NCBI GenBank assembly: GCA_014240375.1 | Contig: JAAZXB010000005.1 | Coordinates: 297-64,296, forward strand | DNA from: Planctomycetota bacterium | GTDB taxonomy: Bacteria; Planctomycetota; UBA8108; UBA1146 | Direction: 5' to 3' | DNA: 64,000 nt | Shown here: positions 1-39,634 of the stretch, piece by piece | How positions within the stretch are numbered: the first letter of the stretch is position 1 | How the letters are laid out: the number at the start of each line of letters is the position of its first letter | Program-made: the position numbers and the translations under genes | Notes under the pieces: generated by a model | What the model was told of the DNA's origin: nothing | What the model saw: the letters and a program-made list of their open reading frames with translations, nothing else | Database searches by the model: none

Positions 1-799
1 ATGCCAGTCCCTGTGAAATTTCGCAGCTATCCAGAATGCCATTGCCATCGCAGTCTTGACCGTCGCTGTGATCGACATCGCAGGAATTGAGAATGCCATC
101 GCCATCGATGTCGTCGTCACAGGGGTCGATGGTTCCATCGCCGTCGCTGTCTGGCTGACAGACGTCGAGCTCTCCGTTAGAGTCACAATCTGGAGCCCCG
201 TTTTCGATGTCCTCCGGATCCGGAATCCCGTTGCCATCGCAATCTTGGGAGTAGTTGACCCTCACGGCGAAAATTGGATCCGAAGATGTTGAAGTCGATC
301 TACAAAATTGTGGGGTGAGATAGATTCCCGAGATGCGCATCAAGCGAACTTCAAGATACAACTCATTCGAACCAAGAAGTTCATCAGGTAATGGTCCTGA
401 ATGCGTATAAGACCCTGAGGTTGCGGTAGGCGTCGGGGCATCCAGTAGCAATATCCAGTCTGTGGCATTATCCGACACATGAATGGAGCCATACCCAACC
501 CAGGATCCATAATTCCAGACGGTGATATGGGCAAAAATATCAGACTCACTGATTCCAGCGGGAAAAACGAAGTGCTTCCTGAGGGTGGCTTGTATTCCTG
601 TGTTTGTCGGACGCCAGTATTGAATAGAACCCTCGTTCTGCGTGACGATGTTTTCCTGTAGGACCACATAATCAAATGCGTTTGCATCGATAGGTGTAGA
701 AAAGGAATGTTCAAAATCCCAGGTCTGGGCAGAACTGATCGTATGTGGCCCGACAACAAGAGCTCCTAAAAGGAGCAGCAGGGATAGCACTTTCATCAT
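1..799 (-). CDS. Secreted protein (partial; C-terminus lies beyond window start): signal peptide + AT-rich N-terminal domain + thrombospondin-type-3-like Ca-binding repeats
   Basis: Hand translation of minus strand from ATGATG at 799/796: MMKVLSLLLLLGALVVGPHTISSAQ... continues without a stop to position 1 and ends in DxDxDGxxDxxD repeats (DCDGNGIPDPEDIENGAPDCDSNGELD...). It is absent from the ORF track only because it runs off the window edge. The start overlaps the stop of the upstream gene (ccATGATGA). Confidence 0.7.
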   Translation of the reverse strand, partial: MMKVLSLLLLLGALVVGPHTISSAQTWDFEHSFSTPIDANAFDYVVLQENIVTQNEGSIQYWRPTNTGIQATLRKHFVFPAGISESDIFAHITVWNYGSWVGYGSIHVSDNATDWILLLDAPTPTATSGSYTHSGPLPDELLGSNELYLEVRLMRISGIYLTPQFCRSTSTSSDPIFAVRVNYSQDCDGNGIPDPEDIENGAPDCDSNGELDVCQPDSDGDGTIDPCDDDIDGDGILNSCDVDHSDGQDCDGNGILDSCEISQGLA

Positions 800-2415
800 G
801 GACATCCTCCAAAGTTATTGCAGCCGAGTAGATCTTCTGTGGGATCTGGGCCGCAGGTGGGGAAGGGGTTTTGTGGGTTGGGGCCGGCGCTGAAGAGGTA
901 GGCGAGCAGGTAGACGCCGTCGCCGATGTCGATTCCTGAATCGTCGTTGATGTCGCAGGCGTCCTGGCAGGTGGGGGCGGGGCCGCTGTTGAAGAGGAAG
1001 CCGAGCAGGAAGATCGCATCGGCGATGGAGATGCTGTCATCGCCGTTGCACTCGCCACGGATGAAGTTCTGACCGGCACAGACATCGGGGATGCCGTCGC
1101 CATCGGCATCAGCGGCTCCTGCGGCGATGTCGCATTCGTCGGGAATCCCGTTCTCATCGCAGTCTTCGGAAACTCCCAACAGAATGTCGCAATCGTCGAG
1201 GAAACCGTTGTTGTTGCAGTCGAAACTGGTGCCGTTGTTGTAATCGCACTCGTCGGGGATACCGTTGTTGTTGCAATCGAAGAATGGGCCGGACTTGCAA
1301 CTGTCGGGGACACCGTCGAGGTCGCAATCGAACTCGCTGCCGTCGGCGATTTCGCAAACATCTGGGATGTTATTCAGATTACAGTCTGGTTCCGTCGTAC
1401 CCGCGTCACATTCGTCAGGAACCCCGTTGGAGTTGCAGTCTGGAACCGAACCGGTGGCGATCTCACACTCATCGAGCTCACCATTGCCATTGCAATCGCG
1501 GGCGCCCTGAGCAATGTCGCAGAGATCGGGGACGCCGTTGTTGTTGCAGTCGAAATCTGGTTGGCATTCCACTGTGCAGCAGACCAAGGGGGAGAAGAGA
1601 TCCTGGCAACCGGCTCGAATGCAGATCTCCGATGGGCCTGAAGATGGAAGAGGGATGACCGCACTGGTGGCACCCTGAGAAACCGTTGTTGCAAGAAGAC
1701 CATCGACATAGATTTCATAATAGACAATCGGCGATGGGGTCGGTTGCCATTCCAACAGCGCCTGACACAGGCAATTACTATCTGTCTCGATGACGCAGGT
1801 GAGGTTCGTGGGGGGGGAAGGAGTGTTGGTGCAATCGATGATGGAGATGGTGCCATCCTCGGTGGTGGGAAAGAGGGAACTGCCATTGACGACAACAATG
1901 GTCTCAACTGGTGGTGACCCGATCGTATCGACGAACTCCACTTGGGAACCGGTCCCAGGAGCACCGGCGGCATTCAACTGGTAAGTGGCGATGTAGAGTT
2001 CGTTATTCAGGCTGCCGCCAGGAATCACAGCGCACCCAAGGAATGGGTCAAAGCAGATCACCACTCCCGCGGTGAAACCTGAGCCCGGGATGACATTGAC
2101 CTGATTGAAATCGGGAGGGCCTCCATTGTTGGCGGTGGCGGTGGTGATTCCATCGACGACTTCAATGAGCGTGGCCATGGAAGGAACGTGGGCCACGCCG
2201 AAACTCCAAGCCTGTACATCATCCCCGGTGTTATCGAACAGCACCTGCACATCGACGAATCCGCCGGGGGGGCCGTTGGCATCGGTGAGGGAGAGGATGT
2301 AATTGGGGTTCTGGGCGGTGGCAGTGCCTGGAAAGAGGGCCAAGGGGGCCACTGTGGTCACTGTGGCCAGGGCGAGAACAGAGATGGCAGCGAGCATCCG
2401 GCGGGTCATCATCAC
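796..2415 (-). CDS. Secreted protein with thrombospondin-type-3-like repeats and C-terminal dockerin-type module
   Basis: 539-aa ORF; N-terminal signal peptide MMMTRRMLAAISVLALATVTTVAPLA; many DCNNNG[IV]PDECD repeats; C-terminal double Ca-loop dockerin (ECNGDDSISIADAIFLLGFLF...DINDDSGIDIGDGVYLLAYLF). Confidence 0.8.
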   Translation of the reverse strand: MMMTRRMLAAISVLALATVTTVAPLALFPGTATAQNPNYILSLTDANGPPGGFVDVQVLFDNTGDDVQAWSFGVAHVPSMATLIEVVDGITTATANNGGPPDFNQVNVIPGSGFTAGVVICFDPFLGCAVIPGGSLNNELYIATYQLNAAGAPGTGSQVEFVDTIGSPPVETIVVVNGSSLFPTTEDGTISIIDCTNTPSPPTNLTCVIETDSNCLCQALLEWQPTPSPIVYYEIYVDGLLATTVSQGATSAVIPLPSSGPSEICIRAGCQDLFSPLVCCTVECQPDFDCNNNGVPDLCDIAQGARDCNGNGELDECEIATGSVPDCNSNGVPDECDAGTTEPDCNLNNIPDVCEIADGSEFDCDLDGVPDSCKSGPFFDCNNNGIPDECDYNNGTSFDCNNNGFLDDCDILLGVSEDCDENGIPDECDIAAGAADADGDGIPDVCAGQNFIRGECNGDDSISIADAIFLLGFLFNSGPAPTCQDACDINDDSGIDIGDGVYLLAYLFSAGPNPQNPFPTCGPDPTEDLLGCNNFGGCP

Positions 2416-2569: not shown

Positions 2570-3403
2570 TTACGGCAGAATCTCGGGGATGATTCTTTCG
2601 AGTCTTTCCTCGATGGCGGGCAGTGCGTTGGCTTCCGTCAGTTGAATCTGTCTTGCCGTGATGACGAGGGTGTTCTTGATGCGCACCTTGGTGCGTTCGG
2701 CGGCGTAGACCTGGTTGCGGCGGGTGCGGTTGCCCTCGGCGCCGGCGACGATGCCGGCGGACCCGATGGCGGTGATGGAACCGGCGACCGAGCCCTTCTT
2801 CGAGCGGTCATCGAGTTCGGTCTTGACGATGCCGCTGACCGCCTCGTCGATGCGCGTCTCGATGATCATCGTCCACGCCTCGCTACGGCTCTTGCGGTCG
2901 ATCAGGTCGCCGACGGCGGAACCGATGAAGGCGCCGGCGATGGTCGCATTCTGACGGGTGCGACGACTGTTATTGCGCGCCTGGTTATTGCCGATGGCGC
3001 CGCCGGCGACGGTGCCGAGCAGTTTGCCCATCGACGAGGAATCGTCGGGCAGGTTCTCGTTACGGCCCCAGAACTTGATGACGGCGGTGATGTCGTAGAG
3101 CGCCTCGGCGGGATCCTTGGTGACGGTCCATCCCTCTTCTTCCATGCTGGCGACGAGCATTCCACGCAATTTGCGGGTGTTGAGATCGAGCCCGGAGGGG
3201 TTTCTGACCTGGATGGTGACGCGACGGTCGTCGCCGCCGGGGCGATCACCGATGAACTCGGGCACGCCATCGACCCACTGCGCCTGGACATTCATCTCCT
3301 TGTAGCGCTCGCTACCGCCGGCGACGCTGACACAGCCGACAGTGGCGAGAGTGGCCCCCATCAGCACGGTGACCAGAGAGAAACAGATCAACGATCGAAA
3401 CAT
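2570..3403 (-). CDS. Lipoprotein with glycine-zipper-like segments (hypothetical)
   Basis: ORF 2570..3472; the likely start is internal, at MFRSLICFSLVTVLMGATLATVGC (lipobox LATVG-C). No recognisable catalytic motif. Confidence 0.55.
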   Translation of the reverse strand: MFRSLICFSLVTVLMGATLATVGCVSVAGGSERYKEMNVQAQWVDGVPEFIGDRPGGDDRRVTIQVRNPSGLDLNTRKLRGMLVASMEEEGWTVTKDPAEALYDITAVIKFWGRNENLPDDSSSMGKLLGTVAGGAIGNNQARNNSRRTRQNATIAGAFIGSAVGDLIDRKSRSEAWTMIIETRIDEAVSGIVKTELDDRSKKGSVAGSITAIGSAGIVAGAEGNRTRRNQVYAAERTKVRIKNTLVITARQIQLTEANALPAIEERLERIIPEILP

Positions 3404-3538
3404 CGGGGACTCCTTGCTGCAATTTTTGGGCGGGCTCGATGGAAAACAGGCGCGACTCCGAGGGGGAGCCACGCCTGATGATGTCTCATCGAAGGCGAGC
3501 AGGCAAGGGGAGCCTGCCCGCAGTGTCGACCGCTGCGG

Positions 3539-5083
3539 TCAGTCGCGCTGGATCAGCGGACACGCCACCTGCGGACGCTTGCGCATGAAGACGAAGTCCT
3601 CGAGGGTCTGGTTCTTGTTGTGACAGACGAGGCAGGCGGTCTCCTTGACCGCTGGCCACTGGTGGTTGACCGGATCACGCGGGTGATCTGGATTGAGACC
3701 GTGGCAATTCTCGCACTGAACATTCTTGTACGGTTCGGCATCTTCCGGCGCGATGAACGCCTGGCCGTAGCCGAGTACATGACAGGCGATGCAATCCTGG
3801 CGCCACTGATCGCCGGTCTCGACGAGACTGGCGAAGGCGGTGGCGTGCTTGGTCTTCTGCCAGAACTCGGTCTGTTCGACGTGACACACCGAGCAGGTGG
3901 CCGATGTCAGGTACTTGTCCTTGTCGTGTAACGGCGGCAACTTTGCGATGTCGAGGAACTCGGCATTTTTGCGAAACGCATCGACCATCGCGACGATCTC
4001 CGGATCTTCCAGCAGGTGCGGCTCCATCGAGGCGCGCTCGTACCAGTAGGTGGAACGGCCCGCCGGAGGAGCCTCGTCGTAGGAGAGGGAGACCATCGGG
4101 GCGCCGCCGTCGATCCAGTCGATGGCGAGGGTGCCGAGGCGCGCGCCCTGGCTGTCGGTGCGCGCCAGCAGCGTGTTGTTGATCGTCTCGAGGCTGTCCT
4201 CTTCGTCGATCCAGATCTTGTGATTGCCCAGTTCGATCATCGGATCGATCATCAGGTCGATGCCATCGACCTCGGCGGCGAGCTGACGGTTGGTGCCGAT
4301 GTGGTTGGCCGACAGCAGGATCACCATGTCGCACTGCTCGCGCAGTTGAGGAATCAGCTTCTGGGCGGTCTCGATGGAGTCGAGCAGTGCCAGTGGCCGT
4401 TCGGGATTGGCCTTCTCGAGGAAGTACGAAGGGATGGTGTCGATGGTCAGGCCGAGGATACCGATCTTGATTCCCGCCGATTCGATGATGGTGGTGGCGG
4501 GGAAGATCAGCTGCTGGTCATCGGCATAGACCAGGTTTGCCGACAGCAGCGGAAACTGCGCTTGCTTCTGAAAATCGAGCAGCGCCGGTAGACCCAGCGT
4601 CAGGTCGTGGTGACCCACCAGCATCGCCTGGTAACCCATGCGATTGTACGACTCGATGATCAGTTTTGCCTTGGCCAGCAGCTGTTGCCGGGCGAAGTCC
4701 TTCTTCTTGCCATCGTCGGTGCCAAAGAGGGTGTTGCCACCATCGATCAGCAGCAGGTTCTGGTGATGGAAACGAGTTTGATCGATGTAGGCCGAACGAC
4801 GGGTGATGGATCCCTGTCGCACCTTCTTGCGCTTGCAGCCACAGACATCGATGTAACCGACATTGTTGATGGAGAAGACCAGGAACAGATCGTGATCGTC
4901 GGTGCTGGCAGCATCATCGGGGGCGGCAGCGGCGGGCGCCGCGGCGCTGTCATCCTGCGGCAGCGGCGAGGTCGAGTTCGATCCGGGCTGGGCGTTGGCC
5001 TGGGGGCGCTGTTCGACCAGTGCCGGATAGACCATCATCAGCAAGATGGCCACGGTGATGATCTGGGGGAGCGATCTCTTCAT
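3539..5083 (-). CDS. Periplasmic calcineurin-like metallophosphoesterase (5'-nucleotidase-like) fused to C-terminal tetraheme c-type cytochrome
   Basis: 514 aa; signal peptide; GHHDLTLG and DGGN phosphoesterase-like motifs; four CxxCH motifs in the C-terminal 120 aa (CSVCH, CIACH, CENCH, CLVCH). Tandem paralog of the next gene. Confidence 0.8.
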   Translation of the reverse strand: MKRSLPQIITVAILLMMVYPALVEQRPQANAQPGSNSTSPLPQDDSAAAPAAAAPDDAASTDDHDLFLVFSINNVGYIDVCGCKRKKVRQGSITRRSAYIDQTRFHHQNLLLIDGGNTLFGTDDGKKKDFARQQLLAKAKLIIESYNRMGYQAMLVGHHDLTLGLPALLDFQKQAQFPLLSANLVYADDQQLIFPATTIIESAGIKIGILGLTIDTIPSYFLEKANPERPLALLDSIETAQKLIPQLREQCDMVILLSANHIGTNRQLAAEVDGIDLMIDPMIELGNHKIWIDEEDSLETINNTLLARTDSQGARLGTLAIDWIDGGAPMVSLSYDEAPPAGRSTYWYERASMEPHLLEDPEIVAMVDAFRKNAEFLDIAKLPPLHDKDKYLTSATCSVCHVEQTEFWQKTKHATAFASLVETGDQWRQDCIACHVLGYGQAFIAPEDAEPYKNVQCENCHGLNPDHPRDPVNHQWPAVKETACLVCHNKNQTLEDFVFMRKRPQVACPLIQRD

Positions 5084-5089
5084 GATGGG

Positions 5090-6715
5090 TTACTTTCCTT
5101 CACTTCTCTTCAGTGGTGGACAGGCGATCCGGGGCTTCGATTGCTCCGGGTCGAAGGGCACCTTGGTCTCACTGGGATTATGACATGCCCAGCAATTGTT
5201 GTCCTGCACCGCCGGCCAGGGGAACGCCTGCGGCTGGCTCGGATGTCGTGGATTCTGGCCGTGACAGCTCTCGCACTGGACATCTTTCCAGCGTCCGGGC
5301 TGGTGGGCATCGACGAAGGTTTCGCCATATCCGGTGACATGGCACGGCATGCAGTCGTAGCGGAATTGATCGCCGGAGGCCTCGAGAGTGGCGTAGGCGC
5401 GTCCGTGAGCGGTTTTCTTCCAGAATGCGGTCTGTTGCGGATGGCACACGGCACAGGTGACGGAGCCGAGGAATTGAGACGAGGGCTTGAAGGTCATCTT
5501 CTGCTCCTCGATGGGGGTCTTGTAGCGGGTCGTGGCGAGAAAATCCTGGACGATTTTTTCCATCGCCGGGTGACGACCGATGTGCGGCGCCAGTGCCACC
5601 GTCGATAGATCGGCGATGTTGGAGCCGGCGGGGGCATCTTCATCCCAGATGCTGACCCACGGCTGGCCGCTCTCGCGCAACCACAGATCTGCCCGGGACA
5701 GTTCCGATCCCTGACCACTCGGCTTCAGCAGTACCGTGCCCTGATGCAGGGTGGTCTTGATTGCATCCTTGATCCAGGTGTTCTCGGAGCCGTTGCTGGA
5801 GTTGGGTTCGACCACTACATCGATGGCGGGCACCTCGGCGGCGAGGCGATCGACATCGGCACGGTTGATGTGGCCCAGCACCACACACAGGTCGACTTCA
5901 TCACCGTGTGCCTCGATCTCGGCGAGGATCGCCGGGTATGGATCGGCGAAGGTTGCACCGGCGCAGTGCTTGTCGATGAAGCGCTGCGGGGGCACTCGCA
6001 TGGCGCCGACGATCAGCACCTTGCGTCCCTGGCTGGTGACGATGGTCGAGGCGGCGAAGGGGGACTGACCGGTGGCATCCTTGAGGTTGGCGCACAGCAG
6101 AGGAAATTTCATCCGTTGCTGGAGCTGGACCAGTCGATCGAGTCCGAGGGCCAGATCGTGTTCTCCGACCGCTGCAGCAAAGGTGCCAAAGAGGTTGTAG
6201 GCATCGATCAGCAGCAGCGCCTTCTGATGCATCTGTTGCTGGAGTAGTGGATTCGGGTGCAGTCGTCCGAGCGAGAAGAGCCAGTCGCCGCCATCGACCA
6301 GCAACGGTTGGATCCCGTCCGCCTTCAACGAGTTGAGAAAGGTCATCCGTCTCGACAAACTGCCGAGCTTGATCTTTCGCTTGGGTCAGCCACACGGTTC
6401 GATGTAGCCGTAGTTGTGGACCGAGGCGAGCAGTAGAAATGGCTTCTCTTCCTCGTCTTCTCCCTGCGCGGGTTCGGACTGCGCCGGGTCGGACTGCGCC
6501 GGTTCGGACTGCGCCGGTTCGGACTGCGCCGGTTCGGACTGCGCCGGTTCGGACTGTGCTGCATCGGACTGTGCTGCATCGGACTGTGCTGCATCGGACT
6601 GTGCAGAGTTCTGCGGCACCGCGAGCGCCTTCGCAGGGGTGGCAGGGAGTGCTGGCTGTAGCAGTGGTGCGATCAGCAACGGTGCGCAGATCAACAGCAG
6701 TAGCGGGTACTTCAA
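5090..6715 (-). CDS. Paralogous metallophosphoesterase-tetraheme cytochrome fusion with in-frame TGA (6386-6388): selenoprotein candidate or pseudogene
   Basis: ORFs 5090..6358 and 6386..6976 are in the same frame, separated only by a TGA. The upstream part has a TTG start at 6715 with a GGGAGAG SD, a signal peptide (MKYPLLLLICAPLLIAPLL) and an (AQSEP)n linker. ...YGYIEPCG-TGA-PKRKIK... aligns without gaps to ...VGYIDVCGCKRKKV... of the paralog, so the TGA replaces a Cys codon. Four CxxCH motifs lie in the C-terminal part. Confidence 0.55.
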
Positions 6716-6734
6716 GTGCTCTCCCTCGTCCCGA

Positions 6735-7421
6735 TCAGGGACAAATTTCCAGACAGGGTAGCGCCTCGCTGGAGCCACGGGGGTAAAGCAGCGTTGCTTG
6801 TTGGTCGGAGCTGGTCGCCAACTGCGCCAGTGCCAGCACCGAATCCTCGATGGTGACCGAGCCGTTGTCATCGAAGTCGGCGGCCGCCAGGCAACTGGGC
6901 TGGGGTCCATCCTTTTCGAGCCAGCCGACCAGTTCGTGGAAGTCGGCCATGTCGAGATCTCCATCGGAGTCGACATCGCCGCGCACCAGGATCATCGAGG
7001 CGGTGACCGGAGCCTCCAGCAGCGGAACCGTGGTCGGCGGTTGCAGGATGTCGGAGAGGAGCAGCAGCGCGACCAGCAGTGCCGCAGCACTGCTCCACCA
7101 GCGACCGAAGGGGAGAGTGGTCGGTGAGGAGCCACCAGCGTCCGCGGGTTTGCTCGATCGATTGGCCGTGGTGCGGATCTGTTCGAGGGTTGCTTGCGAC
7201 AGTGCTGCAACCTGGTCGGGGCCGACGCCGGTCAGCGTCTCGATGGTCAGCAGCAGTTCAGTGCTCAACTGGTCATGGACCGTACGGCAGCCGTGGCAGG
7301 AGTTCAGATGGGCGGCGATTCGCTGCTCTTCCAGCGGTCCCGACTCGCCGTCGAGAAATCGCGGAAGAACGTTCCGCACCCCAGCACAATTATCGAGTGA
7401 GATCATCGGGCGATCGCTCAT
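6735..7421 (-). CDS. Anti-sigma factor (zinc-finger/ZAS-like N-terminus, one TM helix) with extracytoplasmic C-terminal dockerin module
   Basis: Start ATG overlaps the sigma gene stop (ATGA). N-terminus has AAHLNSCHGCRTVHDQL (HxxxCxxC anti-sigma zinc motif); TM segment WWSSAAALLVALLLL; C-terminus DVDSDGDLDMADFHELVGWL...DFDDNGSVTIEDSVLALAQLA is a two Ca-loop dockerin. Confidence 0.75.
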   Translation of the reverse strand: MSDRPMISLDNCAGVRNVLPRFLDGESGPLEEQRIAAHLNSCHGCRTVHDQLSTELLLTIETLTGVGPDQVAALSQATLEQIRTTANRSSKPADAGGSSPTTLPFGRWWSSAAALLVALLLLSDILQPPTTVPLLEAPVTASMILVRGDVDSDGDLDMADFHELVGWLEKDGPQPSCLAAADFDDNGSVTIEDSVLALAQLATSSDQQATLLYPRGSSEALPCLEICP

Positions 7422-8047
7422 GCGCTGCCCCCCTTCGCAGATTCGGAGCGTTTGAGCTCCTCGCGCAGTGCCTTGCGGGCACGTCGCATCAGGTAATCCA
7501 CCTGGTGGAAGGACAGGCTGAGGCGCTCGCCGATCTCCTCGTAGGAGTGGCCCTCGATGTACTTCCATTGCAGCGCCAGTCTCATCTCATCGGGAAGGCG
7601 TTGCACCAGCTCGTCAGTCTCGACCGAGGTCGATTCTTTCGAACGGTGCCGGGCCCGGGCCAGCAGTTCGGTGCGGGCTTGCTGGAGCACCACCCGCTTG
7701 CGCTGTTTCTGCTGGATCCACCGATGGGCTCGATTCTGAACCAATCGTGAAAGCCATCCGATGAAGGCGCGTGGCTCTCTCAGCGAGGGGAGAGAGCGCC
7801 AGATGTGAAGGAGGGCATCCTGGGCGACATCGTCTGCATCATCTCGACCCACCTTGCGCCGGGAGAGTCCCAGCACCAACCCACCGAAGCGTTCGATCAG
7901 CACGGCGAAGGCGGCTTCGTCGCCGCCGGCGGCACGCCGCACCAGGTCGACATCTTCCAGCTGAGAAAGGGACTGCGGAGAATCCGCTGGCGCCTTCTCG
8001 GGTCGATGATCGCCGGGAGCTGGACACATGCTGAATCTCCGGGTCAT
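7418..8047 (-). CDS. ECF-type RNA polymerase sigma-70 factor
   Basis: Region 2 (DDVAQDALLHIWRSL) and region 4 HTH (YEEIGERLSLSFHQVDYLMRRARKALRE). Translationally coupled to the downstream anti-sigma gene. Confidence 0.85.
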   Translation of the reverse strand: MTRRFSMCPAPGDHRPEKAPADSPQSLSQLEDVDLVRRAAGGDEAAFAVLIERFGGLVLGLSRRKVGRDDADDVAQDALLHIWRSLPSLREPRAFIGWLSRLVQNRAHRWIQQKQRKRVVLQQARTELLARARHRSKESTSVETDELVQRLPDEMRLALQWKYIEGHSYEEIGERLSLSFHQVDYLMRRARKALREELKRSESAKGGSA

Positions 8048-8221
8048 GGGGGCCAGTCGAGGGGCTAGAGACCTCGATCACAGACGGGGCGCTTGGCCCG
8101 CATTCGGGCCAGGATCACCTTCCTGAGCAGTATAACATGAAGCCGGGACCGTCCCGGATCACTCCTCGCTACTCTGCAGTGGAAGTGGCGTGCTGGAGGG
8201 CCGATTCGGAAACCAAATACC

Positions 8222-9259
<1,038 letters not shown>

Positions 9260-9480
9260 CAGTCCTCCAGGGTCGTGTGAATTTGAAGTCTCAGTGGCGA
9301 GATGACACCACGAAATCTCCTTCAACGGTAGTGTTCCTCGAAGTGCCCTCGATTCATCCTCGATGCGTTCACCACGGGTCATCGGCGACTTGGGCTTGTA
9401 CAGTGACCGCTGGCAGGAGACCCTGCAGCGCCGCGGTGGCGGTCACCGCCGCTGACCCCTTCAGCCAGGAGGAGATCTCG

Positions 9481-9945
9481 ATGGAGATGGATGACAAGGT
9501 CTGCATCTGTTTCGGGGTTTCCCGCCGCAAGCTGGTCAACTTCACTCGCCAGACCCAGCCGAGCCGACCATCGCAACTGTCGAACTGCTTCGGTGCCGGC
9601 ACCGGCTGCGGCTGGTGCATTCCTTTTCTGATGAGGATTCATGCCGAAGGAGTGGCATCGCAGGGGGAGGATTCGCCGTCATCACAGGGTGCCGCGAATC
9701 CGCTCGAGATCAGCGCCGAGGAGTATCAGCAGCTGCGAGCCAGTTATCGACAGCAGGTCAACGCCGGCGAGTTGCCGAAGAATCGCCATGGCAGTGGTGG
9801 GAGCCTCGACGGGGATGCTGCGGTGGAAGACTCACCGGCTGAAGATTCTGCGGAGGAAGATTCACCGGCCGCAGAAGACCCAGATGGAGAGCGACAGGAT
9901 GGTCGGAGAGATGTTGGCGAGATCGACGACGACGCCTTCGCCTAG
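9481..9945 (+). CDS. BFD-like [2Fe-2S]-binding domain protein with acidic C-terminal tail
   Basis: MEMDDKVCICFGVSRRKL...CFGAGTGCGWCIPF (C-x-C...C-x-x-C BFD motif); AGGAGG SD upstream of ATG at 9481. The supplied ORF start at 9277 is over-extended. Confidence 0.7.
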   Translation: MEMDDKVCICFGVSRRKLVNFTRQTQPSRPSQLSNCFGAGTGCGWCIPFLMRIHAEGVASQGEDSPSSQGAANPLEISAEEYQQLRASYRQQVNAGELPKNRHGSGGSLDGDAAVEDSPAEDSAEEDSPAAEDPDGERQDGRRDVGEIDDDAFA

Positions 9946-20004: not shown

Positions 20005-22221
20005 CTAGCAGCCGTCGAATTCTTGACAGGTGAGGTTGTCGATGGAGTCGTCTGGTCCACAGCTACTACTGGGAGCTGGCGGAACCGATCCACCTTCGAA
20101 CAGGTATTCCAGCAGCGAGATGGCATCGGCGATGTCGACCAGTCCGTCGTCGTTGATGTCGGAAGCGTCGATGCAGGTGGAAGGAGTCTGACCCTGGCCG
20201 AACAGACTCAGGAGCAATACGGTGACATCGACCAGATTGCGGGTGCCGTCCATGTTCAATTCGCCGCGAATGAACTCGGATCCAGTCCCTGAAAGGTCTC
20301 CCGAGAACATGTAGATGACACCATTGTCTCCACCGATCAGGTAACTGACGGGAGTGCCAAAGGGGCCGGTTTCGGTCGAGGAGATCCCGACCACTTCACC
20401 GGTGTTCACCGAAGGAGCGATATCGAATCCAATTCCGCTGGTGACGCCGTCGACCGAACGCTCGATCCGGCTGATTCCGGCGTCGTTCAGTGAGCCTACC
20501 GCAAAATCACAGACGCTGTTATTGGCGGTATCGCGGGAAGTGATTCCGGCGAGAAATACTGCCGCTCCGGTGGGAGTCGGAGGGACCGACATCCACATGC
20601 CATTGGTGCTGCCATCCGCATCGAAGGCGAAGAAGGATGCGACGGAACGATCGATTCCGAGGAACTGCTGGCGGTTCGTCGACCAGGTGATCTCACCGAT
20701 CAGCCCCAGTGGAGTCGGGGACTGAAGAGTGGTACTCGAGATGATGGAGCCTTGCAGGTCGGTGTGAATCAACTCCCCGGCTTCGGTCATCCAGGCGAGG
20801 GTGTCATCGGAGGCGTTCCATGCCAGGCCAGACAAACTGACGGCCGACGTGAACGGACCCGCAATGCTGGCCACCGGGGTCAGATCCTTGGAGTAAAGCC
20901 AGGCGGTGAGTCCCGATGCATCGGCCACCACCAGTTGATTGGTGCTCTCGATGACGGTGGTGGGGCCCGACTGTGCTCCGCCGAAGGCCACCTGCCCCAG
21001 AAGGCGACCAAATCCGACCACGACATCACAGATCGCCGCCGGAAGAGTGGCACCACTCGCCGGTACAGGCTGGAGTGAGTACGAGTAAGTTGCGGAATCG
21101 AGATCGGTATCGGCGTAAGTCGAATCGGTACCGGGAAGATCTGCAATTACAACACCGTCACGCAGCAACAGGATGCTCGCGTAAGTGATGGGGTTGACCC
21201 ACTCGAGGGTCACATTGTTGGCGCCGTCGGCAGCACAGGTGAAGACGGTGACCGAAGGAGCATTGGGATTGGGTACCGGGACCTCGACGATCGAATTATT
21301 GGTGATATCGATCACGAATTCACTGGGGCCACCCCAGGATCCGGTCTCGGTCCAGGCGATTCCGGTGACCCAGCCAGAGAGGGCATTGATGCTGGCGAGG
21401 GGGTAGAAGAGACCCTGTTCTTCGCCTGTATCATCGACCCGCTTCACCTGAGAGGAACGCTGGTCGGAAGGGGCTCCCACGGGAAGGTCGAACAGGTATT
21501 CGCCGGTCAGGGGATCGAGTGTGATCGTCAGCCCGAGACCGAAGACCTCTGCCGTTGCGGTGATCACTTCGGGATTCTGAAAGGAGTTCCCTGAAAAGGT
21601 GCCGTCGCTGAGAAACTCAAGGTAGAGATCATCGTCATAGGCATTGGTCCAGTAGTTTCCGGTCCCGGCGTGCCATGCCAGCCCGGTCACTCCAACGATG
21701 CCAGCGGGCAATTCGATGGGGGTCTGAGAAATCAAGATTCCGGCTGAACTGGAAGACACCAGCCAGTGCTGTCCCTGGTCCTCGACCAGCCAGTAGAGAA
21801 GGTCTTCGTCGCTATTCCAACTGACACCCAGGTAGGCCGCAGGACCGATGGGACTCAGGTACTGTGCTGGAGTCGAACTCAGTGAGTTGATCTGGTACTT
21901 GTAGAAGAAACCACTGAAGGCATCGGCGACGACGAGACTCGATTCTCCGTCGATCACCGTGGTTGCCCAGGGGTAGTCTCCCGGATAACTGGTGTTCTGC
22001 ACGAAGCAGGTTCCGAAGGGGGGATTGTTGACGGGGCAGGGAACCTGCGCCTGGAGAGATCCGGCCAGTGAGACCAGTAGCACCATCACCGGGAGCCAGG
22101 CTGCCAGGTCGGCGAGGGAAAACTGTGAACTGCGGGAATCGGATGATGGTCGAGAGATCATGATTCGTCTTTCATCACTACGGTCCCTGTTCGGGAGCCG
22201 GTAAGATTCTTCCTCGAGCAC
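20005..22221 (-). CDS. Secreted beta-propeller-like protein with C-terminal dockerin-type module
   Basis: 738 aa; signal peptide (...AAWLPVMVLLVSLAGSLQAQ); C-terminus LNMDGTRNLVDVTVLLLSLF...DINDDGLVDIADAISLLEYLF. Confidence 0.8.
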   Translation of the reverse strand: MLEEESYRLPNRDRSDERRIMISRPSSDSRSSQFSLADLAAWLPVMVLLVSLAGSLQAQVPCPVNNPPFGTCFVQNTSYPGDYPWATTVIDGESSLVVADAFSGFFYKYQINSLSSTPAQYLSPIGPAAYLGVSWNSDEDLLYWLVEDQGQHWLVSSSSAGILISQTPIELPAGIVGVTGLAWHAGTGNYWTNAYDDDLYLEFLSDGTFSGNSFQNPEVITATAEVFGLGLTITLDPLTGEYLFDLPVGAPSDQRSSQVKRVDDTGEEQGLFYPLASINALSGWVTGIAWTETGSWGGPSEFVIDITNNSIVEVPVPNPNAPSVTVFTCAADGANNVTLEWVNPITYASILLLRDGVVIADLPGTDSTYADTDLDSATYSYSLQPVPASGATLPAAICDVVVGFGRLLGQVAFGGAQSGPTTVIESTNQLVVADASGLTAWLYSKDLTPVASIAGPFTSAVSLSGLAWNASDDTLAWMTEAGELIHTDLQGSIISSTTLQSPTPLGLIGEITWSTNRQQFLGIDRSVASFFAFDADGSTNGMWMSVPPTPTGAAVFLAGITSRDTANNSVCDFAVGSLNDAGISRIERSVDGVTSGIGFDIAPSVNTGEVVGISSTETGPFGTPVSYLIGGDNGVIYMFSGDLSGTGSEFIRGELNMDGTRNLVDVTVLLLSLFGQGQTPSTCIDASDINDDGLVDIADAISLLEYLFEGGSVPPAPSSSCGPDDSIDNLTCQEFDGC

Positions 22222-23336: not shown

Positions 23337-26300
23337 CTAGTAGGGAGAATCGATGCAGTCGAGTACGTCGTCGGTCGGGTCCAGACCGGCATCCGGGTAG
23401 GGTGCGGCGGGCGGAATCAGCGGCGTTCCATCCGCATGCAGGTAGTAGAAGATCATCAGCATGGCATCGCCGATGGTGACGATTCCGTTGTCATCGAAGT
23501 CTGCCGAATCGAAGCAAGTCGGCTCTGCTCCGTTGACGAAGAGCCAGTTGAGTACCCAGATTCCGTCGGCGATGTCACAGTTGGTATCACTGTTGGCATC
23601 CCCTCTCAGGAAGGTCTTGACGAATCCAGAGCAGGTGGTGGAGGTGGTGACTCCATCGGCATGCTCGGCCCAGATCCGGTAGGTGTAGGTGCCCTGGGCG
23701 GGGACCACATCGATGGTGCTTGTGGCGGAACCCGGAATCGAGGAGATCAGCACTCCGTTGCGCTCGATATGGATCGTCGAGTACGTCGCAGTGTTTTCCC
23801 AGTCGAGATGAATCGGCGCACCGAAGAAGGTGCAGGCCAGATTGATCGGCGCCGACAAGATGGTCACCGAGCAGGTGATGGGAGCGGTCTGGGATCCCGC
23901 CAGTGTCGCGATGACTTCGTAGGAGTAGGTTCCGGCTTCCAGTGGGATGTCGGTGTAACTCTCTTCGGTTCCATCGACGAAACCAACCAGCACGCCATCG
24001 CGAGAGATCTGGATCAGGTCGTAGGACTCACCGTTACTCCAGGAGATGGTGTTTCCGTCACCGATGGTGCTACAGGCGATCCCGGACATCGGTTGCGGCA
24101 CCACGATGGTGCAGCAGGTGGTGGCTCCGGTGCCATTACCGATATTGACCACCAGGCAGTACTGGTAGGTTCCAGGACCGGGGTTGTCGGTGGTACTGGT
24201 GTCGGAACCTGCCAGCGAGCCGATCGGGGCGCCGTTACGGGTCAAACTGATGAAGTCGCCTGCGGCGGGGAGGTCCCACGCCAGTTGCACGGTGGATCCA
24301 CCCGCAAGAGTACAACTGATGTTCTGTGGAGTGGAGGGGACCTCTTCCGAGCAGGATGCGGTGGAGGAGGTGCTCGCATCACCGAGGGTGGCGGTCAACT
24401 CGTAGCTGTGTGAACCATGAGGCTGGGCCGGATCGGTGAAGCTGTTGGTGGTTCCGGGCAGTAGTGCCAGCAACGCACCGTCTCGTGTCAACGACAGGGT
24501 GTCGTAATCATCGGTGTTGGTCCAGCTGAGAACCACATCACCAGAGGTGGCGACGCAGCCGAAGCCGGTCGGAGCGGAGATCACTCGAGCAGAACAGCAA
24601 GTCGCAGCACTGGTGCCGGTACCGATCAGGTTGACGACACAGTACTCATGGGTGCCGACCGGGGATCCCGAGTCATCGTAGGAGCTGGCACCACCTCCGA
24701 GGGTGGCGATCACAGTTCCATCACGAGAGATCTGAACGGTGGTGCCGGGGGCCGGCAGGGTCCACGAGAGAGAGACGGTCGACCCGAGAGCAGAGCAAGC
24801 GATGTCGATCGGGGTCGAAGGCACATCGACGGTGCAGTCGACGGTGTCGCTGATACTGGCGGCGCCGGCGTCGGCAGTCATGTCGTAACTATGTGCCCCG
24901 GCTCCCGCAGTAGCGTCGTGGTACGAGCTATCGCTTCCGGCGAGGATCGCCAGCGGTTGTCCATCTCGGTGGAGAGTGATGGTGTCGTAGACATCATTGT
25001 TGGTCCAGCTGATATCGACCTCGCCGCCATTGGCAGCACAGGCGAATCCGCTCGGGGCAGCAAGTACCCTGGCACTGCAACATGTGGTGGCACTGGTGCC
25101 GTTTCCGATCATGTTGACGATGCAATATTCGTTGGTGCCGACAGGCGCTCCCACATCTTCATGTGAGGTGGCATCTCCTGCGAGCATGGCGATGACGGTG
25201 CCATTTCGGCTCAGTGCGATGGTCTCGCCCGGGGCCGGTAGGGTCCAGGAGAGAGAAACGGTCGATCCCAGTGCCGAACACGCCATGTCGGTCGGTGTCG
25301 ATGGAACATCGACGGTGCAATCGACGGTGTCGCTGATGCTGGCGGCGCCGGCATCGGCGGTCATGTCGTAACTGTGAGCACCGGCTCCTGCAGTCGCATC
25401 GTGGTAGGAACTGTCGCTTCCCGGGAGGATGGCCAGCAACTGGCCGTCACGGTTGACGGTGATGGTGTCGTAGACATCGTTGTTGGTCCATGAGATGTCA
25501 ACTTCTCCGGAGACCGCTGCACAGGAGAAGTCGGTCGGGGCCGCGAGTACCCGTGCACTGCAACAGGTGGTGGCACTGGTGCCACTGCCGATCATGTTTA
25601 CGATGCAGTATTCGTGGGTACCCGCCGGTGCTCCCACATCCTCGTAGGAGGTGGAATCTCCCGCAAGCAACGCGATGACGGTGCCATTGCGACTCAACTC
25701 GATGGTTTCACCGGGTGCGGGCAAGCTCCAGGAGAGTGAAGCGGTGGAGCCGAGTGCCGAGCAGGCCATGTCGGTGGGGGTCGATGGTACATCGACGCTG
25801 CAATCGACGGTGGCACTGGTGCTGGAAGGACCGCCGTGGGCGGTCAGGTCGTAACTGTGAGCACCGTGCGCCGGCATCGCATCCTGGTAAGACGAATCGC
25901 CTCCCGAGAGGATCGCCAGCAGCTGGCCGTCACGATTGAGAGTGAAGGTGCTGTAACTGTCATTGTTGGTCCAGGAGATCTCGACATTGCCGGCGACCGA
26001 CGAGCAGCTGAAGTCGCTCGGATCCGCCAGCACATGAATGGTCGCGCAGATGGTGGTACTGGTGGCATCACCGATTTGCATCGTGATGCAGTACTGGTAG
26101 TCGCCCGGGGCCAGCCCGGTGTCGTCATGGGACTGGGTCGCTGCGGGTAATGACTCGATCGGCAGGCCATTTCTGGTCAGTTCAGCAGTGTCTCCGGGCC
26201 CGGTGTGACTCCACGACAATGAGGTGGTCGAGGCGAGTGCGGTGATTTGAAGATCGGTCGCCGGAGCGGGAACATCTTCGGAACAATCCACCGTCGAGGA

Positions 26301-29300
26301 ACTGTTGCCGTCCTTGGCACCACTGAGGGTGTAGGTGTGCGAACCGGGTTCGGTGGCGAGATCGGAGTAGGAGGTGACGGCTCCCGGTAACACCGCGATG
26401 ACGGCTCCATCTCGGAGCAGGGTCACGCTGTCGTATTCCTCGTTATTGGTCCAGCTCATGTCGACATCTCCGGCGCTGCAGAGGCACGAGAAGTTGGTCG
26501 GAGGAGCAGGAACCAGCAGGGTGCAGCACGCGGAGGCGCTGGTCTTGGGGCCGAAGCGATTCAACACGCAGTAGCTGTAGGTGGCGGGAGCCACACCAGC
26601 ATCGGTGTATCCAGCGCTGGAAGGATCGAGTTCGGCGATCAAAGTACCGTCGCGCCACACCTCGATGGTGGTGGAAGGCTGGGTGTTGACCCAGGTCAGA
26701 ACCGAATCCACTCCACCCGAGACTGAACAGGTCAGATCAGCAGGCGGGTAAGGAACGGTGACCTCACAGGCGATGGTTTTCGATTCGTGATCTCCGATGC
26801 GGCCACTGACCTCATAAAGATGAGGACCCGGTCCGGCGATGCTGTCGACATAACTGGTCGCGAGGCCATCGAGGTCTTCCAGGATGGTGCCTCCATCGCG
26901 CTTGAGGATCACATTGTCGTAGGCCTCTGCATTGGTCCAACTGATGGTGGCGATGGCAGAGTCCACCCCACAGATGAGATCCACCGGTGGAGCAGGAACG
27001 ATGGCCGGGGTACAGGTGTCGACGCTGTGGTTGTTACCGATCCGGGCGCGCAAGCAGTACTGGTAGGTACCCGGGTCGAGAGTCGGATCGATGTAGGAGG
27101 TCGCCGAGGCGGGAAGCGTCGCGATGACGATTCCGTCGCGGAAGATCCGGATCGAGGTGGCGTCCTCGGTGGGGGCCCAGGTGAGTAGCATGTGAGTGCC
27201 CTCGACCAGTCCGGTTCCGAGGGTGTTGATCGGTTCGGGAATGACCGTGGTGCAGTGGGTCGGATCACTTTCACTGGATCCCTTGAGACCTCGAAGGGTG
27301 TAGGAGTAATCTCCCGCGGCCAGCGGGGAGTCGATGTACTCGGTCGTGGTGCCGCTCAGGGTGGCGAGGACGGTCGATCCTCGCATCACCTCGACCTGGT
27401 CGTAGGCGGGCGCCGGGTTCTGCCAGTTGAGGCGAACCTGATCTCCCTCACCCTTGCAGGTCAACGCCTGTGGCTGGCGAAGGACGGTCAATCCACACGA
27501 TTGTGCAGCGGAGAGACCTTGACGACGTTGCGCAGTGATCGAGTAATTACGATTACCATAGGAAACATCTTCATCGGTGTAACTGGTGCTACTTCCCGAG
27601 ATGGTATCGATCAGGAAGCCGTCGCGGCGAATCGCGATGCTGTCGTAGGTTCCACCGTTGCTCCAGGAGAGGAACACCGATGAGCCGGAGGCGGAACAGT
27701 CGAGGGCCCCCAGCGGATCGGGCACGGTCAGGGTGCAGCAGCTTCTGCCGCTTTCTCCGGTGAACTTGACCCCGCGCACACAGACCGCGTAGTCGCCAGG
27801 TCCACCCTGGATCTGGGTGGTGTAACTCTGGCTAGTTCCAGGGATCTGATCGATTTCGGTCACGGTGGAGGAGTCGGTTCCCGGTCCGAACTCGATGATG
27901 ATGTAGTCATAGGCGTCGGTATTGAGCCAGCTGAAGGTGGCGATATCCACATCCGAGGAGCAGTTGATCTGCTCGACCGAGATGGGATCGACCAGTTCAC
28001 AGGTGGCACGAGCACTGACCGCTCGTCCATCATCGGCAACACCCTCTACCTCGTAGATGAAGCGTCCTGCAGAGATGACATCCGTGGTGGTGGTGGCATC
28101 TCCGGCGAGCGTCTGGATGTGCGCACCATCGCGATAGATGTTGATCAGGTCGAATCCATTTGGATTCGGCATCAGGTTCCAGTGGATGGTGGCGATGATC
28201 TGATTCTGGGCATCTGGAGCGGCACTGCAGGTGGCGGTGTAGGGCGGCATCAGCGCAGTGATACTGCAACTGGTCGAGAGGGTCGTGGTTCGATCTCCGC
28301 GCTCCACCACACTGTACTGGTGGATTCCAGAAGAGACATTGTTGTCGTGGTAGGAGGTACTCCCACCCGGCAGGGTGCTCTGCAGCACACCATCGCGGTA
28401 GAGGTCGATCAGGTCGTAGTTATCACTGTTACTCCAGGAGATGGAGATGTCGCGGTGCAGGGAAGTGCAGTCGAGAGAGGCGATCGGTACCATCACGCGG
28501 ATATCGCTACCGCGCTCGACGGTATTGATTGCACGACGCCGTCCACGGACCGAGTAGTGGTGATCTCCGTAGGCGACTCCAGAGTCGGTGTAGGCTTCGG
28601 TGTCCCCTGGCAAGGTCGCCAGCAATACTCCATCTCTGAACAGATCGACTTCGTCGTACACCGCACGGTTGTTCCAGGTCACATCGACGGTCTGTCCCAG
28701 ACAAACGGTCTGAACGTTGTTGGGAGAACGCAACTTGTGACCGAGGAATACGTAAACGCTTCCTGCCCCGTAGCGTCCGTAGGGCTTTGATCCCGCCGCA
28801 CCGATCAGCAGGTCGTTTCCTCTGTCATCATTGAAGTCGCCGGCGGCTCCGACCGAGATCCCCACTTGTTGACCTTCCTTGAGGCCGAGGTATCCGCGCC
28901 CTTCATGCTGGAACAGGTCCAGCAACTGGGATTCACCCAGCATCTGGCCACCGTTGACGCGGTGGGCCATTCCCTTTTCCACATCGAGCAGAATCGATCG
29001 GGAGATGCCAACGATGTGGTCATCGATTCCGTCACCGCTCACATCGAGCGTGGTGTGAACCGACTGCCCGTCTTCATCATTGTCGTAGAAACTCATGTAT
29101 CTGGTGATCCAAGGTGCAGGGATGGCGAGATTGATCTCGGCAGGGGGGCTGAACCCTCCACGAACCAGGTACGCCACAGTGGCAATCGTTTCAGGGTCGT
29201 GATCGTGAAGTGAGCGACTGATCAGTATTTCGGTGTCTCCATCCGCATCGGAATCGCCGGCACAGGAGATCGATTGGCCCAGTTCATGGTGTGCCTGGGG

Positions 29301-38518: not shown

Positions 38519-39634
38519 CTATCGAGCCGATTGATCGGTCCTGGATTGTAGTCGTAGCCAGCTTTCGATGAAGGGTTGGAGGTCTCCATCGAGAACAGCG
38601 TCGGTGTTTGAAGTCTCGTGATCGGTTCTGTGATCTTTCACCATCTTGTAAGGATGCAGCACATACGAGCGGATCTGGCTGCCAAAAGCAATCTCGCTCT
38701 TGAGGCCCTGGATCTTGTTCATCTCCTCACGCCTCTTCTGCTCCTCTGCCTCGAGGATCCGAGCCTTGAGCACTCGCATCGCCTGGGCTTTGTTGGCGTG
38801 CTGACTGCGTTCATTCTGACACTGGACGACGATTCCGCTGGGAATGTGGGTGATACGAACCGCCGAGTCGGTGGTGTTGACGTGCTGTCCGCCCGCTCCA
38901 CTGGCGCGGTAGGTGTCGACTCGAAGATCCACCTCAGCGATTTCGACGTCATCCACGACATCGGTTTCCGGGATCACCCGCACCGATGCAAAGGCGGTTT
39001 GTCGCCTGGCCTGGGCGTCGAAGGGGGAGATGCGAACGATTCGATGGACTCCCGATTCTGCACGAAGGTAGCCGTAGGCGTGATCCCCCAGCAGGTGGAT
39101 GGTGGAGGATTTTAGACCCGCTTCTTCGGCGAACTGCTCATCGATGATGGTGGTTCGGTAGCCCTGTTGCTCAGCCCAGCGCAGGAACATCCGCTGAACC
39201 ATCAATGTCCAGTCACAGGCATCGGTTCCACCGGCGCCTGCTTGAATCTCGAGATAGGCATTTGCACTGTCGTACTTGCCACGAAGTAGCGTTTTCAGTT
39301 CCAGCTGATCGGCACGCTCCAGTAACAGAATGCTATCCCGTTCGATTTCTTCGAGGGTCTCGGCATCACTATCTGCCACGGCCAGTTCGACCATCGCCAG
39401 GGAATCTTCCACCAGTTGCGCCAGGTCTTCGATGCTCTGTACCGATTCCTTGACCCGCTTCAACTCTGCGATGGTCTTTTCGGCATGGTCACGGTCATCC
39501 CAGAAATCAGCGACGGACATCTGCTCCTCGAGAACCTTGAGGCGCTCCTTCTGCTGGTCATGGCAGGTCGCATCGCGGATCCGCTCGAGCAGGGACTCGA
39601 TGTCGTGCAGTCTCGAGTTGATCTCGGAGTTCAC
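38519..39634 (-). CDS. prfB: Peptide chain release factor 2 (no programmed +1 frameshift)
   Basis: SPF and GGQ motifs; GTG start at 39634 with GGAGG SD, giving (M)[20 protein letters not shown]... continuous with the body of the protein. The longer ORF to 39952 is non-coding-looking. Confidence 0.88.

Follow-up and report, generated by a model that had tools for sequence, protein, structure and literature searches.

A selenocysteine/cysteine pair of UshA-like tetrahaem proteins in a Planctomycete operon: candidate haem-wired redox enzymes

The paired genes and the selenocysteine codon of gene 2

We analysed a stretch of 64,000 nt (the window) of contig JAAZXB010000005.1 from a Planctomycetota bacterium (assembly GCA_014240375.1, contig positions 297 to 64,296), and focused on positions 3539..6715, which are spanned exactly by two minus-strand genes, gene 1 and gene 2 (Table 1). 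Each encodes a protein with a signal-like hydrophobic N-terminus, a low-complexity acidic/Ala-Pro linker, a 5'-nucleotidase-like domain of about 310 residues and exactly four CxxCH motifs. The mechanical list of open reading frames (ORFs) gave gene 2 as two pieces, 6976..6386 and 6358..5090, which share a single frame and have one TGA as the sole interruption between them. The two proteins shared 33% identity across about 490 residues (E = 6e-95), and are anciently diverged paralogues of the 'UshA-like (seleno)protein' family. Around the TGA, gene 2 (...YIEPCG-[TGA]-PKRKIKLGSLSRR...) aligned gap-free with gene 1 (...YIDVCG-C-KRKKVRQGSITRR...), placing the TGA codon opposite Cys83; the context of the triad is E-P-C-G-U in gene 2, with U for selenocysteine (Sec), and D-V-C-G-C in gene 1. 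The acidic linker of gene 2 is encoded by a tandem repeat, and its length probably varies between strains. A first-pass annotation had reported tandem fusion genes here, with signal peptides, acidic linkers and four CxxCH motifs; their coordinates and architecture were borne out, and we also judged its C-G-C/U triad and periplasmic location to be correct.

We fetched 89 related loci, located the motif G-x4-C-G-[C/stop] in each, and classed the 86 distinct sequences by the third codon of the triad. This codon was TGA in 52 of the 86 and TGC or TGT (TGY) in 34. In both groups the protein sequence was conserved on either side of it, and an ORF with four CxxCH motifs followed it in every locus, a pattern that chance would not come near to producing.

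An RNA hairpin distinguished the two groups. Stems of 6 bp or more without interruption were present in 39/52 TGA genes versus 4/34 TGY genes, with the loop mostly beginning 19-29 nt past the codon, and a G lay within the first two loop positions in 50 of the 52 Sec genes. The stems also changed in a compensatory and synonymous manner: the identical peptide GGLARRAS was encoded with the stems CUGGCCC/GGGCCAG, CUCGCCC/GGGCGAG and CUCGCUC/GAGCGAG, and the Planctomycete peptide KLGSLxRR with the stem pairs CUC..GAG, CUA..UAG and CUG..CAG. By minimum free energy z-scores of whole segments, Sec and Cys genes could not be told apart (mean z -0.78 vs -0.80). At gathering thresholds, an Rfam scan of the window found no selenocysteine insertion sequence (SECIS) or other family near the TGA and returned two tRNAs only; tRNA-Sec and sel genes were not seen within the 64 kb. 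Since TGA, unlike TGY, is followed by a hairpin whose stem changes are compensatory and synonymous, gene 2 is predicted to be a genuine selenoprotein whose UGA-110 is read as Sec via the downstream SECIS hairpin.

The close orthologues of gene 2 in the protein database were all called at 379-452 aa (about 415), covering the part after the TGA only. Sec paralogues are systematically miscalled as truncated 'multiheme c-type cytochromes'. The window also holds a peptide chain release factor gene with PCRF and RF-1 domains (38519-39952, minus strand), which at 477 aa from its first start codon is longer than usual; its type, RF1 or RF2, would bear on UGA decoding.

Table 1. Positions of the features described in the text (window coordinates unless a related locus is named)
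Feature	Position	Strand	Details
Gene 1, Cys paralogue	3539..5083	-	ATG at 5083; 514 aa; architecture as gene 2
Gene 1 triad codons, Cys81-Gly82-Cys83	4835..4843	-	
Gene 1 haem motifs	3620..3895	-	CSVCH 3895-3881; CIACH 3793-3779; CENCH 3715-3701; CLVCH 3634-3620
Gene 1 candidate distal ligand, Cys508	3562-3560	-	
Gene 2, Sec paralogue	5090..6715	-	TTG at 6715, GAGGGAG ahead; stop TAA 5092..5090; 541 aa
Gene 2 linker repeat	6464..6601		9.2 tandem copies of a 15-nt unit (94% matches); encodes (SDAAQ)3(SEPAQ)n
Gene 2 triad codons, Cys108-Gly109-Sec110	6386..6394	-	TGT GGC TGA; TGA at 6388..6386
SECIS-like stem-loop	6337..6378	-	core hairpin CUCGGCA-GUU-UGUCGAG at 6367..6351; loop begins 26 nt past UGA
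Gene 2 haem motifs	5180..5455	-	CAVCH 5455-5441; CMPCH 5353-5339; CESCH 5275-5261; CWACH 5194-5180
Gene 2 candidate distal ligand, Cys532	5122-5120	-	
Anti-sigma factor	6735..7421	-	zf-HC2/zinc-binding anti-sigma (ZAS) motif HLNSCHGC 7310..7287; one hydrophobic segment; dockerin-like Asp-rich C-terminus
Extracytoplasmic function (ECF) sigma factor	7418..8047	-	first operon gene; NCBIfam sigma70-ECF TIGR02937, 68.9 bits vs cut-off 42.9
ECF-type promoter-like motif	8184..8211	-	TTCCGA-N16-GCCACT; upstream of sigma gene; one match in the window, 0.02 expected
Terminator-like hairpin	3447..3477	-	13 pairs, 9 G-C, T-run; about 60 nt past gene 1 stop; consensus scan only
GntG-family pyridoxal phosphate (PLP) aldolase	8222-9259	-	431 bits; syntenic with the operon
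BFD-like [2Fe-2S] ferredoxin	9277-9945	+	divergent; syntenic with the operon
Promoter-like motif, locus L001	2612-2639		
Promoter-like motif, locus L002	5065-5092		grouped as L002/3
Promoter-like motif, locus L010	3027-3054		
Promoter-like motif, locus L012	2816-2843		
Promoter-like motif, locus L016	2604-2631		
Promoter-like motif, locus L017	1261-1288		
Promoter-like motif, locus L018	2522-2549		
Promoter-like motif, locus L022	3022-3049		

A 5'-nucleotidase-type fold joined to a tetrahaem module

The N-terminal domain was compared with phosphoesterases at the level of profile and structure. In a Pfam scan, neither Metallophos (PF00149) nor 5_nucleotid_C (PF02872) was matched even at E <= 1; the region that 5_nucleotid_C takes up in nucleotidases is occupied here by the cytochrome module. 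The NCBIfam models for SoxB, UshA and CpdB were matched with E values of about 1e-18 to 1e-13, far under their cut-offs, and SoxB TIGR04486 (E = 2e-18) gave 66.2 and 28.5 bits against a cut-off of 550. More sensitive searches recovered the relationship: the family profile matched the N-terminal domains of 5'-nucleotidases in the PDB at E = 3e-30 and SoxB (2wdc) at E = 2e-15, and an AlphaFold2 model of gene 1 (predicted local distance difference test, pLDDT, 88.3; predicted template modelling score, pTM, 0.84) retrieved CD73, UshA and the Thermus 5'-nucleotidase with Foldseek at E = 1e-21 over about 340 columns. The domain is thus predicted to have the fold of a 5'-nucleotidase-type metallophosphatase.

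Metallophosphoesterases of this superfamily carry five motifs, D-x-H, G-D, G-N-H-[DE], H and G-H-x-H, which bind two metal ions. We mapped these motifs onto both proteins through hidden Markov model (HMM) alignments. In gene 1 and gene 2, respectively, motif I reads N73-N-V75-G76 and H-N-Y-G, motif II G-N117 and G-D, motif III G-H158-H159-D and G-E-H-D, motif IV A259 and H, and motif V P-M282-I-E and P-N-S-S. By their motifs, neither protein would be counted as a metallophosphoesterase, although the fold itself is kept. Across 85 family sequences, the ligand positions 73, 75, 117, 158, 159, 259, 282 and 284 were variable, whereas G76, C81, G82, C/U83, G91 and G116 were invariant and N183 was present in 84 of the 85; C-G-C/U was also invariant in a smaller set of 53 family sequences. 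The motifs GG-x-x-R-R, L-D-x-G and S-A-N were retained in the domain. Hydrolysis by the family appears unlikely because the metal ligands are unconserved, only C-G-C/U, a few glycines and one Asn being invariant.

These results bear on the first-pass annotation in three ways. Its metallophosphoesterase domain stood as to homology and fold, but all five motifs are degenerate. The two Pfam families that it named for checking parted company, since Metallophos was not matched and Cytochrome_C554 scored above threshold. Its suggestion that the triad replaces the first metal-binding motif did not hold: D-x-H-G has become N-N-V-G (73-76) and C-G-C lies five residues beyond the glycine of motif I, and in these alignments C-G-C/U is an addition beside the old active site.

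The C-terminal module matched Pfam Cytochrome_C554 (PF13435) at 45.2 and 47.7 bits in the two genes, against a threshold of 20.8 (E = 3e-12 for gene 2). When searched against the PDB, the module profile found OcwA (6i5b, E = 6e-28), Nitrosomonas c554 (1bvb, E = 4e-20) and OmhA, and weakly MccA and MccSep; the alignment with 1bvb covered haem motifs 1-3. By these matches the module is of the c554/MccA type and would have replaced the nucleotide-binding C-terminal domain of nucleotidases. MccA is the closest relative of c554, and a penta-coordinated haem sits in this type of module in c554, MccA and OTR (PMC9250108).

We then counted the conserved candidate distal ligands for the four haems and found three only, H413, H467 and position 508. 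Because three conserved distal ligands serve four haems, we infer that one haem is open or unusually ligated, the second motif being the candidate by homology with c554 and MccA. Of the 85 sequences, 41 had His and 33 had Cys at position 508, the last conserved column; both gene 1 and gene 2 have Cys there, and the His/Cys switch recurs across several lineages. This position looks like a distal haem ligand that toggles between His and Cys, and the Planctomycete proteins may also carry a His/Cys haem. Cys81 was considered as a universal haem ligand and rejected, as homologues from Myxococcota that have no cytochrome module keep C-G-C.

We next placed the proteins among known families. The NCBIfam model NF041198, 'UshA-like (seleno)protein' (UshA_like_PCGU, 519 positions), was matched by gene 1 with 310.6 bits, above the cut-off of 275, and by gene 2 (U read as C) with 242.9 bits, which is below 275 and still by far its top match (E = 6e-72, same model regions). 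Model positions 12-270 matched the N-terminal domain and positions 402-518 the tetrahaem module. On their own, the last 133 aa of gene 1 matched positions 402-518 (E = 2e-29), so the curated family already is the fusion. Both proteins also carry the C-G-U/C motif that marks the family, in the loop behind the first beta-strand, although gene 1 has V-C-G-C in place of P-C-G-U.

The family was listed in 2008 by Zhang and Gladyshev as the selenoprotein family 'COG0737, UshA-like, CxU', with 76 Sec-containing and 92 Cys-containing sequences in the Global Ocean Sampling (GOS) metagenomes. There it ranked as the 13th most abundant selenoprotein family, and it was one of a small number of major families that had no known type of Cys-based redox motif (PMC2398784). 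The entry is repeated in two reviews (PMC9312934, PMC13188914). A profile search of 50%-identity cluster representatives gave 5,474 matches at E <= 1e-30, a number that may include ordinary 5'-nucleotidases; among the best 150 of these, most covered nearly the full profile, about 26 began at the Sec site and a few were shorter fragments. With a Planctomycete-only alignment, at least 498 loci were found among GTDB species representatives from more than 10 phyla, including Planctomycetota, Eisenbacteria, Acidobacteriota, Thermodesulfobacteriota, Myxococcota, Nitrospirota, Latescibacterota and Gammaproteobacteria. The first-pass annotation recognised no characterised enzyme of this architecture, and this stands. 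That the family is a widely annotated one proved partly true: it is curated as NF041198 and has been listed since 2008, and records of metagenome-assembled genomes name its proteins merely 'multiheme c-type cytochrome'.

The family has further variants. A second Planctomycete-type subfamily (L005 6660-7898 and L007 5775-6860; proteins P0262 and P0380) is encoded by a single gene, has the motif E-P-C-G-C-T and always lies beside, or is fused with, DUF1573/HYDIN-like Ig domains. Many other members (P0282, P0300, P0308 and others) have C-terminal TPR extensions.

Operon structure and genomic neighbourhood

As judged from its gene layout, the locus is a four-gene minus-strand operon that encodes an ECF sigma factor, a ZAS-type anti-sigma factor, gene 2 and gene 1. 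The sigma stop and the anti-sigma start overlap (ATGA), the spacing from the anti-sigma gene to gene 2 is 19 nt, and only 6 nt separate the stop of gene 2 from gene 1. The terminator-like hairpin likely marks the operon end; a downstream putative lipoprotein gene (3406..2570) was left out of the unit, being past this hairpin and unconserved in related loci. Nine further loci of the clade carried a motif of the form TTCCGA-N16-G[GC][CT]ACT ahead of their sigma orthologue, against 1/79 of the remaining loci. We infer that the TTCCGA motif is a promoter, possibly of an autoregulated ECF type, and the unit looks like an autoregulated ECF operon with the two cytochromes as its output.

The arrangement was conserved among Planctomycetes. 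A Sec paralogue lay directly upstream of a Cys paralogue in 13 Planctomycete loci, and three loci (L014, L019 and L021) had the Cys copy only, while L020 was too short upstream to tell. In 15 Planctomycete loci a co-oriented ECF sigma gene was present upstream, and a zf-HC2 anti-sigma gene was detected in 10; the anti-sigma orthologues matched Pfam zf-HC2, and one also matched Dockerin_1. Farther upstream were a GntG-like PLP aldolase gene in 14 loci and a divergent BFD-like ferredoxin gene in 9. The Sec and Cys tandem under ECF sigma/anti-sigma control is Planctomycete-specific and finds no mention in PMC2398784, PMC9312934 or PMC13188914. This conserved operon, comprising the ECF sigma, the anti-sigma, the Sec and Cys paralogues and the promoter motif, appears to be undescribed.

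Beyond the Planctomycetes, a NapC/NirT-type multihaem protein of about 740 aa adjoined the family gene in seven Thermodesulfobacteriota-type loci (L026, L028, L031, L036, L041, L042 and L060). L026 also encoded a multihaem-cytochrome b561 fusion, and L031 encoded sigma-54 two-component regulators; the neighbours noted lie at 2609-4837 and 7573-9549 in L026 and at 8080-10296 in L031. The Eisenbacteria neighbours (LptD-like, GspE-like and FolC-like), judged by eye from their sequences, were taken as ordinary synteny.

Two metagenomic proteins of about 1,200 aa, P0243 and P0244, carried in one chain a UshA-like domain with C-E-C, a DsbA-like thioredoxin domain (motif CPHC in P0244), an unassigned region, a UshA-like domain with C-G-C or C-R-C and a tetrahaem module. 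The middle residue of the triad is thus not always Gly, and such fusions are a Rosetta-stone hint at thiol-disulfide chemistry. In a further protein, P0226 (674 aa), two AhpC/TSA (TlpA/peroxiredoxin-like) stretches were joined to c554-type haem modules with no UshA-like domain, so that here too a thiol-redox domain accompanies a c554-type cytochrome.

Several other genes of the window are recorded here as side observations. Downstream of the operon, a secreted protein of 539 aa (796-2415, minus strand) contains many D-C-N-x-N-G-I-P-D-E-C-D repeats and had no Pfam match; it shares a Cys-rich ...C..CP tail with the anti-sigma factor. Very large ORFs lie at 23337-30284 (minus strand, 2,315 aa), 54845-58282 (plus strand, 1,145 aa) and 20005-22221 (minus strand, 738 aa), and the latter two had no Pfam match at E <= 1e-5. 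At 41269-46453 (plus strand), the gene for a secretin-family protein (906 aa) comes directly after that for a CHAT-domain protein (831 aa).

Proposed function and comparison with known systems

By analogy with the polysulfide reductase MccSep, we propose that these proteins are probably haem-wired periplasmic Cys/Sec redox enzymes acting on chalcogen bonds, rather than phosphoesterases, and we hold this reading with some reserve. The catalytic centre would be the invariant Cys-Gly-Cys/Sec dyad, on a loop just past the former motif I. The dyad would attack a chalcogen-chalcogen or similarly electrophilic substrate, such as polysulfide, persulfide, disulfide, tetrathionate or a selenium species, and would cycle through a selenenylsulfide (Cys-S-Se-Sec) or a mixed adduct. 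The four haems would carry two electrons to or from the respiratory chain, the scheme allowing both the reductase and the oxidase direction, and the second haem, which by homology may be the one with open coordination, would be the likely partner of the Cys/Sec loop. The 6-nt gap and the strict co-conservation of the Sec and Cys copies suggest that the two proteins could form a hetero-oligomer, and the autoregulated ECF/ZAS pair suggests that they might be induced by an envelope or redox signal. We counted in favour of a redox function the unconserved metal ligands, the invariant C-G-C/U, the c554/MccA-type module, the DsbA-like fusions and the NapC/NirT-type neighbours.

Several results weigh against this proposal. 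Homologues from Myxococcota (about 375 aa) keep C-G-C and have no cytochrome module, and no adjacent cytochrome was present at the one Myxococcota locus inspected; because these cytochrome-less proteins keep C-G-C, the dyad can work without a haem in cis. In the model of gene 1, residues 84-88, directly past C-G-C, were of low confidence. All-vs-all clustering of 3,588 neighbouring ORFs gave no partner gene conserved across phyla, only clade-specific neighbours, and no sulfur or selenium metabolism genes were found in the Planctomycete loci. Literature searches for a functional study of the family turned up catalogue entries only. Finally, a sizeable subset of Sec members keeps a plausible set of metal ligands, D/N73, D117, E158, H259 and G-H282, and gene 2 does so in part, which leaves a metal-Sec centre conceivable.

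This last observation belongs to the strongest of the alternatives, a remodelled metal centre in which Cys and Sec ligate Cu(I), Fe or Ni in the remnant of metal site 2, so that catalysis takes place there and the haems supply electrons. Parallels to such a centre would be the Cys-Cu(I)-Cys site next to haem 2 in MccA, to which the haem module is related, or Sec in its role as a ligand in [NiFeSe] hydrogenase and formate dehydrogenase. It would draw on the ligands kept by many Sec members and on H73, D117, E158, H159 and H259 of gene 2, and CxC is a known Cu(I)-binding spacing. However, the ligand positions vary family-wide, and are largely lost both in gene 1 (N73, N117, A259 and M282) and in several clades of Sec members, L028 and L031 among them, and C-G-C/U alone is invariant; we consider this alternative unlikely.

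Lower still we place a true hydrolase of the 5'-nucleotidase or SoxB kind, in which a phosphoester or a protein-bound thiosulfonate would be cleaved, with a coupled redox step left to the cytochrome. The homology and fold match with UshA, CD73 and SoxB and the ligands partly retained in some members agree with it. Against it, the His of motif I, the Asn-His of motif III and the second His of motif V are lost family-wide, the 5_nucleotid_C substrate-binding domain is absent and the best SoxB score is far below the model cut-off. Selenocysteine, moreover, is typical of redox catalysis rather than hydrolysis. We therefore regard hydrolysis by such an enzyme as improbable.

A slightly poorer chance still is given to the idea that the proteins are mere electron carriers, with the c554-like module shuttling electrons, the N-terminal domain a vestigial scaffold or docking surface and C-G-C a structural disulfide. 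Nitrosomonas c554 is an electron carrier (PMC9250108), and no conserved substrate-related neighbours were found; but a costly Sec codon and its SECIS are maintained in most lineages, C-G-C/U shows no variation at all in a domain that otherwise drifts, and the cytochrome-less homologues still keep C-G-C. The weakest alternative, which takes the TGA for a true stop or a sequencing error and gene 2 for a pseudogene or a pair of distinct genes, could appeal to the gene callers that split gene 2 and to the lack of tRNA-Sec and sel genes within the window, but is effectively refuted by TGA at the same codon in 52 independent loci of many phyla with coding conserved on either side, by a covarying hairpin specific to TGA genes and by the actual gene 2 stop, which is TAA.

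Returning to the haem-wired Cys/Sec redox enzyme, we suggest more tentatively, as a possibility that we would not yet bet on, that the family constitutes a class of haem-dependent selenoenzymes not described before. In such an enzyme a gutted phosphoesterase fold would present Cys-Gly-Sec to an open haem and would cleave or form chalcogen bonds with no metal besides haem; in marine Planctomycetes it would work as an obligate Sec/Cys heterodimer with its own redox-sensing ECF/ZAS pair. If so, a family that comprises thousands of sequence clusters and belongs to the more abundant selenoproteins of the ocean would gain a function, and periplasmic sulfur or selenium redox chemistry an additional widespread route. 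The hypothesis is a concrete one: the phosphoesterase metal site is unconserved, this kind of haem module carries a catalytic open haem, and the newly solved MccSep reduces polysulfide with the same ingredients, a Sec loop, a Cys and haem. The present work extends what is known of the family by the ECF-controlled tandem of Sec and Cys copies, the promoter motif, the lack of conservation of the metal-ligand motifs, the count of three ligands for four haems with the His/Cys switch at position 508, and the connection with chemistry of the MccSep type. The pairing of a Sec and a Cys paralogue, being conserved, also offers a natural experiment on the reason for selenocysteine retention.

Among known systems, the closest precedent for the proposed chemistry is MccSep, a pentahaem selenoprotein polysulfide reductase of Geobacter sulfurreducens (PDB 9wt8/9wt9), in which Sec lies in a D-G-U-P loop of a non-cytochrome domain, together with a Cys at haem 2 (His/Cys), and which reduces polysulfide and selenite (PMC13510729). 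The proteins described here are likewise periplasmic multihaem c-type selenoproteins in which a non-cytochrome domain supplies the Sec. In MccSep a Gly-Sec-Pro loop is used, a partner Cys is needed, and Sec and Cys forms coexist in its family. A weak alignment (E = 5e-5 to 6e-3) links the region of its first haem motif to the present haem module. MccSep probably corresponds to NCBIfam ExtKL NF040886. It nevertheless belongs to another family, NF040886 being matched with 7.9 bits against a cut-off of 250; it has five haems rather than four, its Sec comes from an Ig-like domain rather than a 5'-nucleotidase fold, and its partner Cys is a haem ligand distant in sequence, whereas here the Cys is two residues from the Sec. 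The likeness is a lead as to how the proteins may work, by analogy only.

The N-terminal domain is homologous to those of 5'-nucleotidase, UshA and CD73 in both fold and sequence, but its metal-ligand motifs are degenerate and the C-terminal nucleotide-binding domain is missing. SoxB belongs to the same superfamily, is periplasmic and does sulfur chemistry alongside cytochromes; unlike the present proteins, it needs a di-Mn site, which is absent here, and has neither haem nor a C-x-C/U motif. The SoxB-plus-cytochrome logic to which the first-pass annotation likened the fusions is a weaker analogy than that with Cys/Sec-plus-haem redox enzymes. The SoxB TIGR04486 score, 66 versus 550 bits, is far too low for SoxB itself.

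The haem module shares CxxCH-x6-W-x2-T-x-H-A ... CxxCH ... VQCExCHG with c554, the N-terminal module of MccA, OTR and OcwA, and differs from them in being fused behind a non-cytochrome domain and in having a last distal ligand that is His or Cys by lineage. TsdA and SoxAX, which oxidise thiosulfate and have a His/Cys-ligated haem, combine c-type haem with cysteine chemistry on periplasmic S-S bonds; they are oxidative counterparts with no sequence relationship to the proteins described here. The Cys at position 508 suggests that the Planctomycete proteins may have a His/Cys haem, as in TsdA and SoxAX.

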